A stretch of DNA of 9,704 bases from a virus. Its lineage: Duplodnaviria > Heunggongvirae > Uroviricota > Caudoviricetes. Each line of letters begins with the position of its first letter. Position 1 is the stretch's first letter. Under the pieces are notes generated by a model. It made no database searches, was not told the DNA's origin, and worked only from the letters and a program-made list of their open reading frames with translations. The stretch is taken from IMG/VR virus record IMGVR_UViG_2537562013_000016, positions 1 through 9,704 of that record; one strand, given 5' to 3'. The translations under genes and the position numbers were made by a program. Positions 1 through 5,307 of the stretch are shown piece by piece.

Positions 1-596
1 TCCTTCATTTCTCGACGTTTTGGCCTAATATTACTATGTAGTGTCATGAAATCACGAAGATATTTATTCATCAGTTCTGTATCTGAAATTGAACTATGGA
101 ATTTTATTGATGCAAAAATATTTAAAGAGGGAACAAACCAATAATAAGCGGGCTCACCCCATATAACATTTTCACCATCTAACTCTTCATCAGCACTGTA
201 CAAACGATCATCACTTAAGGCAGAGTCAGAGCGAATACCATAAACTCCATTCCCATTTCCAATTGCTCGCCATAAAATTACAACATAATCGCCTGTGCTC
301 TCGTTACGCTCAATTCCCTTCAAGTAAACTTTTTTCCTTGAAGAATACCCGGGAGTATTGTCATCCCAAAGTAATGTATCTGCCAATGAAGTCCTACTTG
401 AGAACCAAGTATGTAAGGACTCCAGCATATCGGCCATCATCAACGGCTCATAATATGAATCACCTCTCTTATGGAATCCTAATTGTTTATATTTGAAAAA
501 AGTGACCAGTCCTTCGCTCATTTGCGCACCATTAGTTGAAGTTGAATGCTTCGATTTTAGAGAAAATCTAACCAGAAGAAGATGTGTGATGAACAT
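1..596 (-). CDS. Hypothetical protein, N-terminal part only (runs off the left edge); AT-rich cargo gene in the psu/cos-to-int variable region
   Basis: My own minus-strand translation shows an open frame with no stop from ATG 596-594 (AAGGA 9 nt upstream) or ATG 521-519 down to position 1; protein begins MSEGLVTFFKYKQLGFHKRGDSYYEPL... Absent from the ORF track because it has no in-window stop. GC is visibly lower than the P4-like core. No motif recognised. Confidence 0.5.
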   Translation of the reverse strand, partial: MFITHLLLVRFSLKSKHSTSTNGAQMSEGLVTFFKYKQLGFHKRGDSYYEPLMMADMLESLHTWFSSRTSLADTLLWDDNTPGYSSRKKVYLKGIERNESTGDYVVILWRAIGNGNGVYGIRSDSALSDDRLYSADEELDGENVIWGEPAYYWFVPSLNIFASIKFHSSISDTELMNKYLRDFMTLHSNIRPKRREMK

Positions 597-634
597 TTAA
601 TCATGTCCTTAAATTAATGCAACCTTCGTGCGCA

Positions 635-653
635 GTGCTTTCCCCGCCTCGCC
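635..653 (-). other. cos: cos site: 19-nt P2/P4-type cohesive end sequence
   Basis: Plus strand reads GTGCTTTCCCCGCCTCGCC, the exact reverse complement of the P2/P4 cohesive end GGCGAGGCGGGGAAAGCAC as I recall it; located just past the 3-prime end of psu as in P4. Confidence 0.8.
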
Positions 654-756
654 CGCCCGCTTTGCAGGGCGGTTTTAATGCAGTTGCACAGACACGCTCA
701 GACCGCGCCGGGAATGGCGCGGTTTGCAGAAAATGAGGCAGGGAAACGCATGCAAA

Positions 757-787
757 GCCATGCACCTTATCGATGCATGGCTTTTTT
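757..787 (+). terminator. Intrinsic terminator-like hairpin between cos and the psu 3-prime end
   Basis: GCCATGCA (757-764) / TGCATGGC (774-781) 8-bp stem, 9-nt loop, followed by TTTTTT (782-787) on the plus strand; on the minus strand the same hairpin is preceded by an A-run and followed by TTTG, so it may also weakly terminate the psu transcript. Confidence 0.5.
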
Positions 788-817
788 CAGTAAAATCGGA
801 CGGATTTTCGGGGAGTT

Positions 818-1390
818 TTACACAGACTGATGTGATGCCAGTTGCGCACTTTTACGCGAAAAAATCATGTTCTGCGCAGGGGTGAATTTTTCACGGCTGT
901 CATCCACCGAAGCCGCGTCAGGCCTGAATCCGATGGTCGTTAAAATGTCGCTATCCTGTGCGGAATAATTAATTTTTTCCCCCTTCGCAAGCCAGGACAG
1001 AAGGGCTTCACGCAGGGCATCTGTGGCACGCTGTATGGCACAGTTTCGGGCAATGTCCGTCAGTTCACTGTAGCCCATCAACTCCGGTGCCAGTGCGGCC
1101 GCCATTACTGTGCCGTGCTGCTGCATAAAATCATTCAGCCGGTCGCGGATGCTGATGTGCTGAACGGCTTCATGCGAACGAATATAACGACCGGCGGCCT
1201 GATTCACCTGCCATTTTCTGACTTCGATAATATTGCGTAATTCGTCCAGGCGACTGACGTTTCTGCCTTCTCCTGACAGAAGCCGCAGGTATTCCTGTTC
1301 GGCCGCTGCCAGCTCATTTTTGCGTTGCAGCCATGCTGCTTTGTTATTCTGACAGGTGTCAAAGGCCTGCTGTAAGGCTGTGCTTTCCAT
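818..1390 (-). CDS. psu: Psu polarity-suppression / capsid-decoration protein (190 aa)
   Basis: ORF track 818..1390 (190 aa, same size as P4 Psu); N-terminus MESTALQQAFDTCQNNKAAWLQRKNELAAAEQEY matches my memory of P4 Psu; last gene of the sid-delta-psu order, next to cos. Confidence 0.9.
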   Translation of the reverse strand: MESTALQQAFDTCQNNKAAWLQRKNELAAAEQEYLRLLSGEGRNVSRLDELRNIIEVRKWQVNQAAGRYIRSHEAVQHISIRDRLNDFMQQHGTVMAAALAPELMGYSELTDIARNCAIQRATDALREALLSWLAKGEKINYSAQDSDILTTIGFRPDAASVDDSREKFTPAQNMIFSRKSAQLASHQSV

Positions 1391-1463
1391 CGTTATCTCT
1401 TTCTCATCATGCTGAAGAATAAAAATACGGTGTGCGGCGACGGCCGGTGTTAACCGGCAGCCC

Positions 1464-1964
1464 TCATTCCAGACGCAGCGAATATGATTGTGTTTTTAAG
1501 CGTACTGGCGGCAGTTCCTGTTTTTCATACAGGCGTTCTGCCAGTTCGTCCGGCGTGACCGGGCGGACAATGAAACGGTTGATGGTCTGAAGCGTTTTAA
1601 ACACCAGACCACAGCCCGGATCCGTGCACACATAAAAACGCTCGGTGACTTCCTGAGACAGACGCCGCGATGTTCTTGACAGTGCAAGGCCTTTACATCT
1701 CCGACAACAATATCCGGTAACAAGCATTCTTTTCGGGCGTTTCATACTGCCGGAGGCTGACGTCAGTGAATCGCGGTATCTCTGTTTGCCTGAAATGTAT
1801 TCCATTCCTGAATCTTTACTGTCAGAGAAAAAGCTTTCACTCGCTTCAAATGTCGCAGAGCAATAAATATTCCGGCACTGTGCAATCATTATCTTGGTGC
1901 CATCGTCCATGAAATGTGCGCGACGGGTGTGAGCAACATGTCCACACGACGGGCAGTAAATCAT
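1464..1964 (-). CDS. delta: Delta late transcriptional activator (duplicated Ogr-type zinc finger, 166 aa)
   Basis: 166 aa as in P4 Delta; two Cys-rich repeats (CPSCGH...CRNIYC and CCRRC...CTDPGC) typical of a fused Ogr dimer; ATG 1964-1962 overlaps the sid stop 1963-1961 (ATGA overlap, translational coupling). Confidence 0.9.
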   Translation of the reverse strand: MIYCPSCGHVAHTRRAHFMDDGTKIMIAQCRNIYCSATFEASESFFSDSKDSGMEYISGKQRYRDSLTSASGSMKRPKRMLVTGYCCRRCKGLALSRTSRRLSQEVTERFYVCTDPGCGLVFKTLQTINRFIVRPVTPDELAERLYEKQELPPVRLKTQSYSLRLE

Positions 1965-2695
1965 GACAGCAGCCCTCTGGCCTTAAGCTCTGCTCCCTGC
2001 TGGTCTATTTTGTCCTGCCACACCTTGCGCTGTGCCGGTGTGCCTGCCACCTCATAATCCATGTGCGGAAGTGTTGCCGCTGACAGTCCGGTCAGCCGGA
2101 GAACCGGCTCGCCGGTGAGGCTGATTTGCATCTGTTTAATTTTCTGTTCCAGCGATGATTTCACCTGCTGCATGACAGCCTTTTCCGGTGCGACGTAGCC
2201 CTGATGGCCGGTGGTGTTGGCGAGCGGATTTTCCTGTACCAGGATACTCAGATGCATTGCCCGGACAAGCGCCTCACAGGTTTCATTCAGGGCGTGTTCC
2301 AGCTCATGCTCTGCATACAGACTCAGAAGGTGATGATGTGCCTTCCGGTAGGCGGTGGCCGTACTGTCACACGCCCCTTTCAGGCGTTCACGTTCGAAAT
2401 TCAGCACCACGGCCAGATTGTCATATTCCTGTACCAGCTCCCTGCGTGCCACGCGCTCAATGTGGCGCTGTTTCAGCTCGTCGCTCAGGACACCACCGGC
2501 TGCACGAAAGGCCGTGCGCCAGTCGTCAGCGTCGTTTCCGTCGGCCTGCGCCAGCGCATTTTTTTCCTGCTCTGCCCGTTCAATGGCCGTGACGGTCTCA
2601 TCCATCAGGCGGGCGTTCTCAAGATGGGCGGCTCTGGCCTTTTCCAGTTGTGCCAGCGCGGGTTGCAGATATTCAGGGATGGTGTTGTCAGACAT
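1961..2695 (-). CDS. sid: Sid external capsid size-determination scaffold (244 aa from ATG 2695; track ORF starts at GTG 2713)
   Basis: ORF track 1961..2713; the ATG at 2695 has a strong GAGGAG Shine-Dalgarno 7 nt upstream and gives 244 aa, the size of P4 Sid; first gene of the sid-delta-psu operon downstream of two Delta-type sites. Confidence 0.85.
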   Translation of the reverse strand: MSDNTIPEYLQPALAQLEKARAAHLENARLMDETVTAIERAEQEKNALAQADGNDADDWRTAFRAAGGVLSDELKQRHIERVARRELVQEYDNLAVVLNFERERLKGACDSTATAYRKAHHHLLSLYAEHELEHALNETCEALVRAMHLSILVQENPLANTTGHQGYVAPEKAVMQQVKSSLEQKIKQMQISLTGEPVLRLTGLSAATLPHMDYEVAGTPAQRKVWQDKIDQQGAELKARGLLS

Positions 2696-2729
2696 TTTCC
2701 GGCTCCTCGTCACTTCAGGTTAAGAAAAT

Positions 2730-2785
2730 TGTGACGTACACCGGACAACAACACGACGCATTGCAGATGTGCCAGCCCTGACACA
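2730..2785 (-). promoter_or_regulatory. P_sid-type late promoter region with two Delta/Ogr binding motifs (TGT-N12-ACA)
   Basis: TGT(2730-2732)-N12-ACA(2745-2747) and TGT(2768-2770)-N12-ACA(2783-2785). Relative to a predicted minus-strand start near 2721 their centres fall at about -18 and -55, the arrangement I recall for P4 Delta-dependent promoters. Confidence 0.6.
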
Positions 2786-2864
2786 GGAGACTCATCCTCA
2801 GACCGGCAAGCCAGGAAAAGGTCGCAGGAAAAACCGGCTTACTGTTTGTTTTTTTATATTTTAC

Positions 2865-2968
2865 TGTTCACCTCTGTTCACCTTAAGAAAAAAGATAAGT
2901 AATACAGTAAGTTAAAGGTTGAACAATAGCAGTAATGACTGTTCACCGTCTGTTCACCACTGTTCACC
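2865..2968. repeat. ori-like iteron cluster: five direct TGTTCACC octamers plus one degenerate inverted copy, flanked by an AT-rich tract
   Basis: TGTTCACC at 2865-2872, 2875-2882, 2940-2947, 2951-2958, 2961-2968 (the last three at 10-11 bp spacing); GGTTGAACA at 2917-2925; AT-rich stretch 2979-3060 directly downstream (possible unwinding element). The same octamer fills the crr-like repeats after alpha. Confidence 0.7.
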
Positions 2969-3126
2969 CGTTGATGGACTTTTTGTGCTGTTTATTACTT
3001 TTTATTTTTATTAATTCACTGAAATAAATAAGAAAAAACAATTTGTATTTCACTATAAAAAATTCCAGGTCCTTCAGAACCCTTTGAGACCCTTCCAGTC
3101 CGGATGGATAAAAAACACACAGCCAT

Positions 3127-3144
3127 TGTAAGGTTGCCGGAACA
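3127..3144 (+). promoter_or_regulatory. Delta/Ogr-type site of a P_LL-like late leftward-operon promoter upstream of vis
   Basis: TGT(3127-3129)-N12-ACA(3142-3144); predicts a plus-strand start near 3190, about 395 bp upstream of the predicted P_LE start, matching the P_LL to P_LE spacing I recall for P4. No clean second site found at -18. Confidence 0.45.
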
Positions 3145-3246
3145 AATTCCCCCTGTTGCGTCTGCTGAAAATATTCACAAAATAAAGCGCTACCCGAAGC
3201 CGGACGGACTTATCCGGTGCTGTATGGACATTAACGAGGTAGCCCG

Positions 3247-3513
3247 ATGCAAGCTGTTTTTTCTTCCCCGTCTCCCGCCCCTGTTACGCCACTGATGCCG
3301 CTGCCGGACATCACGCAGGAGCGTTTTTTACGTCTGCCGGAAGTGATGCACCTGTGCGGCCTGTCACGCTCGACCATCTATGAACTCATCCGTAAGGGGG
3401 AATTTCCGCCGCAGGTGAGTCTTGGCGGTAAAAATGTGGCCTGGCTGCACTCTGAAGTCACCGCATGGATGGCCGGGCGCATTGCCGGACGCAAACGGGG
3501 GTACGACGCATGA
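3247..3513 (+). CDS. vis: Vis / AlpA-family excisionase-like transcriptional regulator (88 aa)
   Basis: ORF track 3247..3513; GAGG 8 nt upstream of the ATG; protein contains the AlpA-family helix-turn-helix signature [48 protein letters not shown]. Confidence 0.85.
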
Positions 3514-3548
3514 TGATGCCCGCTCTGCAAAAACTCCCTTTTTCTGGC

Positions 3549-3578
3549 TTGCCTTTTTCCGGCATTTGCGGATATAGT
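3549..3578 (+). promoter_or_regulatory. Strong sigma70 promoter, candidate P_LE (early/immunity promoter)
   Basis: TTGCCT (3549-3554), 17-bp spacer, ATATAG (3572-3577), with TATAGT as an alternative at 18 bp; predicted start near 3585; lies just after the vis stop. Confidence 0.6.
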
Positions 3579-3641
3579 TTTTCCGCTGCCGCAAAATCGG
3601 CAGCCGGGCGTGAGAACCCGAGCAATTCACAGGCGACATAT

Positions 3642-3663
3642 GACGCGCCACGCGTCTTTTTTT
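3642..3663 (+). terminator. Intrinsic terminator-like hairpin about 60-80 nt downstream of the P_LE candidate (leader attenuator or 3-prime end of a small immunity RNA)
   Basis: GACGCG (3642-3647), loop CCA, CGCGTC (3651-3656), then TTTTTTT (3657-3663); plus-strand specific. Confidence 0.5.
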
Positions 3664-3695
3664 GTGTCGCAATCAATGCCACAGAGCGCCAGATT

Positions 3696-4109
3696 ATGGT
3701 GTGGTGTGTGGTCAGTCGTGCAGATGGCATTCCGTGCATCCTGCCCGCGTCCGCTCATTATGCCGCAGAGTCAATGGTAGCTCAGGCGGGGCAGCCTCCG
3801 GGCTGGCCGGTATCCTGTGAAGCCGGTATTCTCACCCCCGTCTGGGCTATCGCCATCGAGCGTGAGAACTCCGGCGATAGCGTTATTTGCTATTCACAGG
3901 AGGCTGCCATCATGGCTACAACCCTTACCCCTTCACACCCTGAATTTGTCTTTGTGTTTGCGGCTGTCCGTCGCGCAGACCGTCATCCCCGTATCTGCAT
4001 GCTTCGCACCGTCGCCGGTGATGAACGCAGCGCCCGCCGTTCCCTTGTCCGTGACTATGTGCTCTCCCTTGCTGCCCGTCTGCCGGTGGTGGAGGTGTCC
4101 CGTGCGTAA
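3696..4109 (+). CDS. kil-region ORF of the immunity/early operon (137 aa from ATG 3696; nested 65-aa ORF from ATG 3912 with a strong ribosome-binding site)
   Basis: Same frame and stop as track ORF 3465..4109, but 3465 and 3510 lie upstream of and within the P_LE promoter and leader, so the first plausible start is ATG 3696. AGGAGG (3898-3903) sits 8 nt upstream of in-frame ATG 3912. Nested in-frame starts fit the kil/eta arrangement I recall for P4; start choice is uncertain. Confidence 0.45.
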
Positions 4110-4389
4110 TAAAAAAGCCCCTCAGACCGTCTCAGCACGTCATGACGCCCGTGAACACCTCAGCATTGAGGCTTACCATAAGCTCAACCGCGCCAGCGCC
4201 GTATCCCGGTTTGTTGGGGGTGATTTGATTCACCGTGAACTCTCCGGCCTGCATCAGCTCTACATTCCGCATATTTTCAGCTACCTGAATGAAGATATTG
4301 ATTTTGTGCTGAATGAGCTGAAAGCCAAAGGCCTGTGCCGCGATTTTCTCGCCCAGCAGAAAGACCGGGGAGACAGGACGCATGTTTGA
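4102..4389 (+). CDS. eps: Epsilon-like protein (P2 prophage derepressor homologue), 95 aa, GTG start
   Basis: Distal 95 codons of track ORF 3817..4389; GGAGG (4091-4095) 6 nt upstream of GTG 4102; no methionine codon anywhere downstream in this frame, so a non-ATG start is required; its stop overlaps the next ATG (4382). Assigned by position and size only. Confidence 0.55.
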
Positions 4390-4837
4390 TTTTCCCCAGC
4401 CCGGTGAGATTTACCGTTCTGCCGGTTTTCCCGATGTGGCCGTGGTCGGCATTCTGGAAGACGGTATTCCGTGGGAAATGCCGTCCCGCTGCCCGGACAT
4501 TGTCTGGAACCCGTACCGCCGTAAATTCAGTATCCTTGTGCGTATCCTCGCTGACGGGCGCACCACAGACATCCCGCTGGGGCGTTTTCTGCGGGAATTT
4601 ACCTGTGACCGTCCTGACCTGTTTAAACGCAGCCCCGTAAACCGGCATGCGGTACTGAAAGAAATGGCCGGAGACCCGGAATTACAGAAATGGCGGGAGA
4701 AATATCTGGATATTTACCCGCAGGACACTGTTCCGGCCAGCCGGGCGGCACCGGTGGCGCGGGAATGGCGGGAAATTCCCCGCACGGAGCCTGACCCAGA
4801 AATCACCCCGGATAACAGTTACCGCAATTATCTGTAA
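4382..4837 (+). CDS. Conserved P4-family hypothetical protein (151 aa; orf151 equivalent)
   Basis: ORF track 4382..4837; translationally coupled to the upstream ORF; position between eps and alpha and a size matching the P4 orf151 I recall. Confidence 0.7.
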   Translation: MFDFPQPGEIYRSAGFPDVAVVGILEDGIPWEMPSRCPDIVWNPYRRKFSILVRILADGRTTDIPLGRFLREFTCDRPDLFKRSPVNRHAVLKEMAGDPELQKWREKYLDIYPQDTVPASRAAPVAREWREIPRTEPDPEITPDNSYRNYL

Positions 4838-4910
4838 TTAAAAAACGACACCCGAAAAATTAAATGTGCGTATTCGCGCAGGGATACGCACGTCTTCAGG
4901 AGACGCAGAT

Positions 4911-4976
4911 ATGCCTTATCAGTTAATGCAACCGGCACGGAATGCAGTCATCTGTCACAGGGAGGAAAGCAAATGA
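4911..4976 (+). CDS. Possible small ORF (21 aa, [21 protein letters not shown]) coupled to the following gene
   Basis: AGGAG (4898-4902) 8 nt upstream of ATG 4911; stop TGA 4974-4976 overlaps ATG 4973 of the next ORF; preceded by hairpins at 4866-4891 and 4891-4905. Below the ORF-track length cutoff. Confidence 0.25.
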
Positions 4977-5293
4977 AACCCCCCTTACCGCCCGTCTTAC
5001 GCGCAGCCCTTTACCGTCGTGCTGTCGCCTGTGCCTGGCTGACCGTGTGCGAACGTCAGCATCGCTACCCGCATCTCACCCTTGAGTCACTGGAGGCGGC
5101 CATCGCCGCTGAGCTGGAGGGCTTTTATCTGCGCCAGCACGGTGAGGAAAAAGGGCGTCAGATAGCCTGTGCCCTGCTGGAAGATTTAATGGAATCCGGC
5201 CCCCTGAAGGCCGCGCCGTCGCTGTCCTTTCTCGGGCTGGTTGTGATGGATGAACTCTGTGCCCGTCACATAAAAGCGCCGGTACTGCACTGA
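4973..5293 (+). CDS. Conserved P4-family hypothetical protein (106 aa; orf106 equivalent) immediately upstream of alpha
   Basis: ORF track 4973..5293; GGAGG (4961-4965) 7 nt upstream of the ATG; ends 15 bp before alpha. Confidence 0.7.
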
Positions 5294-5307
5294 AGGAGAA
5301 CAACACC

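Follow-up and report, generated by a model that had tools for sequence, protein, structure and literature searches.

The immunity region of a P4-family satellite prophage and its C4-type antisense RNA

The stretch of DNA analysed here (the window) comprises the 9,704 nucleotides, positions 1 to 9,704, of IMG/VR virus record IMGVR_UViG_2537562013_000016, which belongs to the Caudoviricetes, and is a P4-family satellite. Its genes lie in the order known from satellite phage P4, with psu, delta and sid on the minus strand and ORF88, the immunity region, epsilon, orf151, orf106 and alpha on the plus strand; the open reading frames (ORFs) of this colinear core agree with the P4 annotation, and the Derepression, DUF5375 and AlpA families were found in it. 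Our subject is the immunity region, around positions 3549-3912, in which a promoter (P_LE), a leader RNA ending at an intrinsic terminator (t1), the gene of a small antisense RNA (CI) and the nested protein-coding genes eta and kil follow or overlap one another (Table 1). We consider it very probable that a P4-type satellite prophage maintains lysogeny through this region, as its immunity switch, by the published P4 mechanism.

RNA and protein genes of the immunity region

A resemblance to the CI scheme of P4 had been suspected in an earlier reading of the bare letters (the original prediction), and the immunity interval indeed equals the P4 reference save for two bases. A blastn search of positions 3400-4200 against phage records returned P4 at 99.1% identity with the whole query covered, and a global alignment placed window positions 654-7701 against P4 11624-4577 on the reverse strand with 131 substitutions and two 1-nt indels (the P4 coordinate is 12277 minus the window position, a conversion valid for 3018-7666). 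Over 3549-3912 (364 nt) the only two differences are the adjacent bases 3584-3585. DNA similar to 3549-3930 is present in 2836 of 5426 complete Escherichia coli genomes, and the module is thus very common in this species. For comparison, relatives were collected as 80 viral-contig loci reached through the Kil protein and as graded E. coli relatives down to 70% identity, together with a P1-like plasmid, a phage-plasmid and phage phiKO2, and the tests of co-variation and of stems were run on a 23-sequence alignment.

The promoter P_LE, which had been proposed earlier, is present and is the sole sigma-70-like site in 3200-4400 (1 found against 0.5 expected); its -10 element is the one marked in the original P4 record X02534, and transcription is expected to start near G3585, the position at which the Rfam isrK model begins. 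That model matches 3585-3662 on the plus strand with 69.7 bits (gathering threshold 50), and the c4-a1b1 model matches 3572-3624 on the same strand with 49.5 bits (gathering threshold 46.7; the two families are RF01394 and RF03163). Immediately behind the promoter, the minimum free energy (MFE) fold of the leader 3585-3663 has two hairpins, then a single-stranded spacer and, at the 3' end, the intrinsic terminator. Both hairpins of the original prediction recur here, the 7-bp one exactly as described and the terminator-like one as t1. The leader stems are 98-100% paired among the 23 relatives, t1 starts 8 nt past the site called b1 and is kept in all relatives, and the two sites in the leader, a1 and b1, have unpaired probabilities of 0.92 and 0.86. 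At 3584-3585 the window has CG, like all 22 other aligned relatives, and the P4 reference has GC; the CG provides a seventh pair, G3585-C3604, in the first leader hairpin, and the GC of the reference, at the transcription start, may be an old sequencing inversion or a strain-specific change. An antiterminator helix between GGCG at 3632-3635 and the CGCC of the 5' arm of t1, which CI might remove by binding b1, is plausible but is not claimed, as it has 4-5 pairs only and no comparative support.

Downstream of t1, the Rfam model for C4 antisense RNA (RF01695) matches 3770-3857 on the plus strand over its full length (model positions 1-87) with 74.9 bits against a gathering threshold of 45, so that the covariance-model check proposed with the original prediction came out positive, with the leader matched by isrK and c4-a1b1 besides. 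The MFE fold of 3776-3855 (-49.5 kcal/mol) is cloverleaf-like: a 16-bp stalk encloses the minor hairpin, the major hairpin and a single-stranded bulge of 8 nt. Its stalk and hairpins are 100% paired in the 23 relatives, with compensatory changes at five pairs, and the two segments that matter for recognition, a' in the bulge and b' in the loop of the major hairpin, have unpaired probabilities of 1.0 and 0.59. Past the stalk come G3852 and CCA at 3853-3855, and this NCCA-like tail is conserved among the relatives. Since a stalk that begins at G3776 and ends in G3852 and CCA has the shape of an RNase P substrate, and since the covariance model covers the same segment, the mature RNA, whose ends had earlier been thought impossible to place, can be put at about 3776-3855. 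This placement agrees with the 5' end of CI, reportedly mapped at P4 8501, and with its reported length of about 79 nt. CI RNA is listed among the substrates of RNase P, including its processing in P4 (PMC5499578), and IsrK and C4 have been described as structural homologs of P4 seqA and CI RNA (PMC3632133; PMC4825925). A permissive Rfam scan of 3100-4400 gave no further family at an E value of 1 or below, the minus strand around the interval yielded nothing in the Rfam searches or the promoter and terminator scan, and ARAGORN found zero tRNA or tmRNA genes in the window.

The reading frame that ends at 4109 has ATG codons at 3510, 3696 and 3912. The nested in-frame starts with a strong internal ribosome-binding site that had been pointed out earlier are the published nested genes eta (3510) and kil (3912) (PMC10111431). 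The Shine-Dalgarno sequence AGGAGG at 3898-3903 lies 8 nt ahead of the kil ATG, and the Kil protein matches NCBIfam NF033153 (phage_ICD_like) with 76.1 bits (cut-off 25) over residues 12-59 of 65. The start of eta overlaps the stop of ORF88 in the tetranucleotide ATGA (3510-3513). Upstream of kil, the frame is open in 59 of 62 distinct relatives and broken in three; its median open length there is 149 codons, compared with 44 and 11 for the other two frames, and the alignment contains compensating +1/-1 indels between a2 and the kil start; the Prokaryotic Genome Annotation Pipeline (PGAP) calls the long eta ORF in all P4-like relatives fetched. According to PMC10111431, the P_LE transcript begins inside eta and is soon terminated through RNA interactions at CI and seqA, its processing gives CI, and kil can be translated upon read-through; full-length Eta, by the same account, is made from late-promoter transcripts only, through coupling to the alpA homolog, and its translation blocks termination. 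The coordinates of the terminator timm in P4 are 8365-8209 (PMC3177188).

Table 1. Features of the immunity region and adjacent ORF88 in window coordinates
Feature	Position	Strand	Evidence or remark
ORF88, AlpA/Vis-type helix-turn-helix protein	3247-3513	+	Pfam Phage_AlpA 74.2 bits; P4 annotation ORF88
eta, 199-codon frame through promoter, leader, CI gene and kil	3510-4109	+	in-frame ATG 3510
P_LE promoter, -35 TTGCCT 3549-3554, 18-nt spacer, -10 TATAGT 3573-3578	3549-3578	+	promoter scan
Leader RNA (P4 seqA region, IsrK homolog)	3585-3663	+	Rfam isrK, c4-a1b1; MFE fold
Leader hairpin 1, GCTGCCG 3585-3591 / CGGCAGC 3598-3604	3585-3604	+	exact 7 bp
Leader hairpin 2, site a1 GTGAGAA 3610-3616 in loop	3605-3620	+	
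Site b1 TTCACAGG, single-stranded spacer	3626-3633	+	
Intrinsic terminator t1, stem 3642-3656 (6 pairs, 5 G-C), U-tract 3657-3663 (seven T)	3642-3663	+	terminator scan
CI RNA (C4 family), about 79-80 nt	3776-3855	+	Rfam C4; predicted ends
CI stalk	3776-3791 / 3836-3851	+	
CI minor hairpin	3792-3805	+	
CI major hairpin, b' CCTGTGAA 3814-3821 in loop	3806-3827	+	
CI a' TTCTCAC in single-stranded bulge	3829-3835	+	
Hairpin GCTATCGCC / GGCGATAGC (3846-3854 / 3873-3881), a2 GTGAGAA 3862-3868 in 18-nt loop	3846-3881	+	
Site b2 TTCACAGGA 3893-3901, over kil Shine-Dalgarno AGGAGG 3898-3903	3893-3903	+	9/9 complementary to CI 3813-3821
kil (65 codons), coding for an Icd-like inhibitor of cell division; on P_LE transcripts the first gene to be translated	3912-4109	+	
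timm, Rho-dependent terminator inside kil	3912-4068	+	transferred from P4 8365-8209

Paired recognition sites and their co-variation

The direct repeat GCGTGAGAAC occurs in two perfect copies, of which the second (3860-3869) had been located correctly in the original prediction and the first lies at 3608-3617, one base upstream of the 3609-3618 given there. Taken alone this pair is modestly unusual, as 23 of 200 shuffles gave at least two matches when one mismatch was allowed. A second pair that had been overlooked, ATTCACAGG, lies at 3625-3633 and 3892-3900. The segment between the repeats that had been described as partly complementary to both does exist, at 3823-3840 rather than 3821-3838 (CCGGTATTCTCACCCCCG); its complementarity reaches 88% with the upstream repeat region (16 nt) and 79% with the downstream one (19 nt), around the perfect 7-nt core TTCTCAC (3829-3835). 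The complementarity is imperfect, as had been stated, when it is taken as one long stretch, and this is because pairing runs through two short perfect helices, of 7 bp and 8-9 bp, of which only the a' part had been recognised. The core a' (3829-3835) matches a1 at 3610-3616 and a2 at 3862-3868, and b' (3814-3821) matches b1 at 3626-3633 and b2 at 3893-3900, with an extension to 3813 and 3901. Within CI, b' sits 7 nt on the 5' side of TTCTCAC, so that the complements follow one another in the order that antiparallel pairing requires. The window contains exactly two examples of the composite motif GTGAGAA-N(8-30)-TTCACAGG, which did not arise in any of 200 shuffles.

These sites co-vary among the relatives. 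A C4 match was found in all of the 15 relatives that were fetched for Rfam searches, and in a second P4 record, with an isrK match just upstream of it in all except L093. Between a1/b1 and a'/b', 94.8% of the alignment cells are paired and 12 of 15 pairs have changed on both sides, a result equalled by none of 500 shuffles and compared with 41-53% in slid controls; between a'/b' and a2/b2, 98.1% of the cells are paired and 12 of 16 pairs are compensatory, and again none of 500 shuffles reached the same percentage paired or the same covariation score. The intramolecular stems as a whole are 99.4% paired, with 10 compensatory pairs. At least five types of a site (GTGAGAA, GTGGAAA, GTAGGAA, TTGGCGT and TTGGAAC) and nine types of b site were seen, and a locus-by-locus table of the loop, the bulge and their best-matching sites shows that the CI segment and both flanking copies change in step in nearly every locus. 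The aligned sequences give direct comparative evidence for the repeats being RNA-RNA recognition sites, two per target.

Assortment of the two sites is combinatorial: GTGAGAA and GTGGAAA each occur with the same four b types, and all 8 combinations were seen (loci L003-L094). The three common a types differ by transitions only, so that G-U intermediates could link them; the b types differ by many changes. Several exchanges would be required to reassort them by ordinary crossover, as a and b sites alternate in an interleaved order (a1 b1 ... b' a' ... a2 b2). Two loci, L056 (1169-1509) and L070 (1169-1509), are natural recombinants in which the a1/b1 of the leader is of one type and CI with the downstream sites is of another.

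The hairpin that presents a2 (9 bp) is 98.6% paired among the relatives, with compensatory changes at four pairs and slid controls at 22-64%. It shares 3846-3851 with the CI stalk, so that the two are mutually exclusive in the precursor, and its arm also overlaps the CCA tail. It may be the published terminator t4 or part of it, an assignment that we infer, or it may be a processing switch. Immediately after a2, CUCC (3869-3872) can pair with GGAG (3899-3902) of the kil Shine-Dalgarno around an inner hairpin (3876-3894); this cis helix is predicted by per-sequence folds in 21 of 23 relatives, in a region where the column-wise test is disturbed by indels, and it would be expected to sequester the ribosome-binding site of kil in cis.

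Two further pairings were considered and set aside. The CI minor hairpin segment GGCAGCCTCC (3790-3799) is perfectly complementary over 10 nt to GGAGGCTGCC (3899-3908) at the kil ribosome-binding site, and is kept as a remark only: it is 96% paired in the relatives, with several one-sided G-U changes, zero compensatory ones and a result no better than shuffles, and the CI segment is buried in stems (unpaired probability 0.3). An extension of the a-site helices into their flanks, to 16-19 nt, was rejected on the alignment, where the flanks obey their own cis stems and show no compensation.

The proposed switch and competing explanations

In the P4 mechanism as we would apply it here, the constitutive P_LE (3549-3578) would start a transcript near 3585 whose leader carries a1 (GUGAGAA) and b1 (UUCACAGG) and then t1. 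RNA that reads through t1 would hold CI (about 3776-3855), a tRNA-like stalk with two hairpins, of which the 5' end would be cut by RNase P and the 3' CCA end trimmed. CI would display a' (UUCUCAC) in its single-stranded bulge and b' (CCUGUGAA) in its main loop and, in trans or in cis on the unprocessed RNA, would pair with a2 in the hairpin loop and with b2 at the kil Shine-Dalgarno. With kil untranslated, Rho would terminate transcription at timm (3912-4068), termination would also occur at t4 just upstream, and both events would keep the replication genes epsilon, orf151 and alpha silent. Binding of CI to a1/b1 would raise termination at t1 and so reduce the CI precursor, by which CI would regulate itself. 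Once the late promoter upstream of ORF88 is active, ribosomes coupled from ORF88 would translate eta (ATG 3510) through the region and mask targets and terminators, and late transcription would ignore immunity.

The present analysis demonstrates the match to P4, the RNA families with their structures, the two pairs of target sites that co-vary with CI, the position of b2 over the ribosome-binding site, the Icd-like character of Kil and the conserved eta frame. What is said of RNA processing, of termination and the factors on which it depends, of a trans-acting CI and of an eta override is drawn from the literature or deduced; immunity in trans, for example, is suggested by identity with P4 in CI and in all four target sites. 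Nothing in the sequence contradicts the P4 mechanism. Work by Briani and co-workers in 2000 reportedly found that CI RNA enhances termination at t1 in vitro without host factors, t1 being autoregulatory, and that the main block is a Rho-independent terminator, t4, between cI and timm, the latter being Rho-dependent.

Several observations weigh against this interpretation or limit it. A reading of the targets as inverted copies of CI over its whole length was rejected: RNAduplex energies of -53.9 kcal/mol upstream and -63.7 kcal/mol downstream do not stand out from background (z = -1.6 and -3.7), and 75-nt windows without any relation to the sites reach lower values, down to -71.9. Long duplexes thus add no significant energy signal, and it is the short sites that carry the case. 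In L056 and L070, the upstream sites mismatch their own CI and the downstream sites match it, so that the a1/b1 interaction is dispensable or losable, as would suit an upstream interaction that is accessory and autoregulatory. What is stated on the particulars of t1 and t4, on an action of CI at t1 that needs no other factor and on the precise CI ends follows secondary citations of the P4 work. Finally, the integrase gene of this copy is frameshifted (see below), and the element may therefore not be fully functional; this defect has no bearing on the immunity region.

A rather unlikely alternative is purely translational control of the P1/P7 type, in which CI/C4 only blocks the kil ribosome-binding site, all downstream silencing is Rho-dependent polarity and the intrinsic terminators are not directly affected. 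It draws on the position of b2 over the kil Shine-Dalgarno, on the Icd-like Kil, on timm lying inside kil, on the occurrence of the C4 and isrK/a1b1 module ahead of icd in P1-like plasmids and phiKO2, and on the fact that the downstream sites always match CI and the upstream sites do not always do so. Against it stand the canonical terminator t1, 8 nt after b1 and conserved in all relatives, and the CI-enhanced t1 and Rho-independent t4 reportedly described in the work of 2000 mentioned above. Translational control is better seen as a component of the P4-type switch than as a true alternative to it.

A role of the P_LE-to-t1 leader as a trans regulator of the IsrK type is doubtful as well. By this account the leader would bind the CI segment, free or in the read-through RNA, release the kil ribosome-binding site and act as a decoy or activator opposing immunity. 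The isrK score, the end of the leader at an intrinsic terminator, the identity of a1/b1 with a2/b2 and their high accessibility agree with it; the MFE fold of the full leader even pairs a1/b1 with a'/b' in cis, and in Gifsy-1 the short IsrK is described as binding the read-through isoform in trans and turning on translation of the first ORF (PMC4825925). The P4 literature speaks for the opposite sign, however, since seqA is needed to establish lysogeny (as cited in PMC3632133) and the IsrK-like elements of P4-like prophages in Salmonella Typhi are required and repressor-like (PMC3632133). The assortment of sites invites an extended form of this account, to which we likewise give little credence: a three-RNA circuit with a combinatorial address code, in which the abundant short leader would, by analogy with the IsrK of Gifsy-1, compete in trans with the kil message for CI, and in which decoy and almost freely assorting a and b sites would allow many mutually heteroimmune satellites to share one cell. 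The assortment itself is an observation.

The historical view that the immunity factor is a protein repressor, encoded by the 137-codon 'cI/ash' ORF (ATG 3696), with the repeats as operator-like DNA sites, is highly improbable. An open frame is present, GenBank records still speak of a cI gene product or transcriptional repressor, and the Pfam 'Ash protein family' matches; yet the variation is RNA-like, as CI and its targets change in a complementary manner where operators bound by one protein would change identically, and the stems show compensatory and G-U changes. Moreover, annotated 'ash' coding sequences in the P1-like plasmid and the phage-plasmid have only 39 or 72 codons and start on the C4 gene, and published genetics has refuted the protein in P4, where the immunity factor is the processed CI RNA (PMC5499578; PMC4825925; PMC10111431). 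That chance alone produced the repeats and hairpins in a leader rich in G+C, for which the modestly unusual 10-mer pair and the insignificant long duplex energies might be cited, has a practically negligible probability and is refuted by three independent covariance-model matches, a composite motif with 0 expected, strong three-way co-variation and the presence of the module in about half of the complete E. coli genomes (2836 of 5426).

The P4-type switch thus remains the preferred explanation. Since there is no departure from published P4 immunity, the finding is already known, and as a discovery it has little weight: how P4 achieves immunity through an antisense RNA, the processed CI, has been understood since the 1990s, and Rfam has curated families for the RNAs. 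Its practical use is that an RNA-based immunity module can be recognised from raw sequence and that exact coordinates are given for every element in this copy.

Annotation, flanking modules and comparison with known systems

Current genome annotation hides the RNA genes, and the Pfam Ash family largely corresponds to translated RNA genes. In L083-L091, RefSeq/PGAP names the entire 182-199-codon eta frame 'host cell division inhibitor Icd-like protein' without marking any RNA gene; the Icd-like profile is matched by the last 65 codons (kil) only. Pfam PF10554 ('Ash protein family') matches the translated promoter, leader, CI and seqC segment at 3573-3948 (eta residues 22-146) with 85.1 bits. 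The two annotated 'ash family protein' coding sequences mentioned above (L092 610-729; L093 604-822) match PF10554 positions 49-87 only, and because they begin on the C4 RNA gene, the conserved core of the family looks like a translated RNA gene.

Within the P4-like core, the most diverged bin is 3000-3500, which holds 42 of the 131 substitutions in 500 nt as well as the 1-nt indel at 3017/3018, and spans the ori repeats, the surroundings of the late promoter and the beginning of ORF88. At its two ends, 1-653 and 7990-9704, the window has no DNA-level match to P4, from which it follows that the integrase module and the region beyond psu differ from those of P4; in an O157:H7 relative, the position beyond psu is taken by an anti-phage dCTP deaminase gene. 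An intact P4-type integrase with its att region was not found in the window, where the DNA past 7989 is unlike P4. The integrase at 8439-9630 is a different allele, split into ORFs of 278 and 158 codons by one extra G at 9233/9234 (GAAGGTAATG against GAAGTAATG in the intact O157:H7 relative), and is either a pseudogene or the product of a sequencing error.

Compared with the immunity region of P4 (P_LE, seqA, t1, cI/seqB, seqC, t4, kil/eta and timm), the present region has essentially the same sequence and the same parts, as well as the same specificity type (a = GTGAGAA, b = TTCACAGG), so that the element should be homoimmune with P4. Outside the P4-like core, the element differs from P4 in its integrase, which is another and frameshifted one, and in its left end. 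The features by which membership of the C4 family can be tested are all present, namely the score, the fold shape, a loop and a bulge that match two sites on each side, and an icd/kil-type gene downstream in the same orientation with its ribosome-binding site covered.

The immI region of P1 and P7 (c4, a1/b1, a2/b2, icd, ant) contains the same Rfam families, C4 and c4-a1b1, in the same order of targets, antisense RNA, targets and icd-like gene, and likewise uses two-site recognition, a downstream b site at the ribosome-binding site and processing by RNase P (PMC5499578). The locus of the P1-like plasmid (L092) could be aligned along the module and has co-varying sites. The P1 operon is additionally controlled by the protein repressor C1, and its regulated product is the antirepressor Ant (PMC8198154), whereas in P4 the RNA is the sole immunity factor and the genes regulated are those for replication and derepression; P1-like loci also do without the long eta frame.

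In the Salmonella prophage Gifsy-1, with its order IsrK - STnc1160 - orf45 - anrP, IsrK is the structural homolog of our leader (69.7 bits). There too, an intrinsic terminator closes the leader, and behind it lie a processed C4-like RNA and a small first ORF (PMC4825925). The short Gifsy-1 leader, however, is reported to be a trans activator of the translation of the read-through isoform, whereas in P4 the reported regulator is CI, a repressor, and the leader is described as its target; Hfq binding and trans-activation have been reported for the Salmonella IsrK.

A last group is formed by N15, phiKO2 and PY54 (icd-antA-antB). Tandem isrK and C4 matches lie upstream of an icd-like gene in phiKO2, and blastn found DNA similarity of 3400-4200 to PY54 and others. 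These phages differ from the present element in having other antirepressor genes downstream and other specificity sites, and they are helper-independent temperate linear plasmid-prophages.

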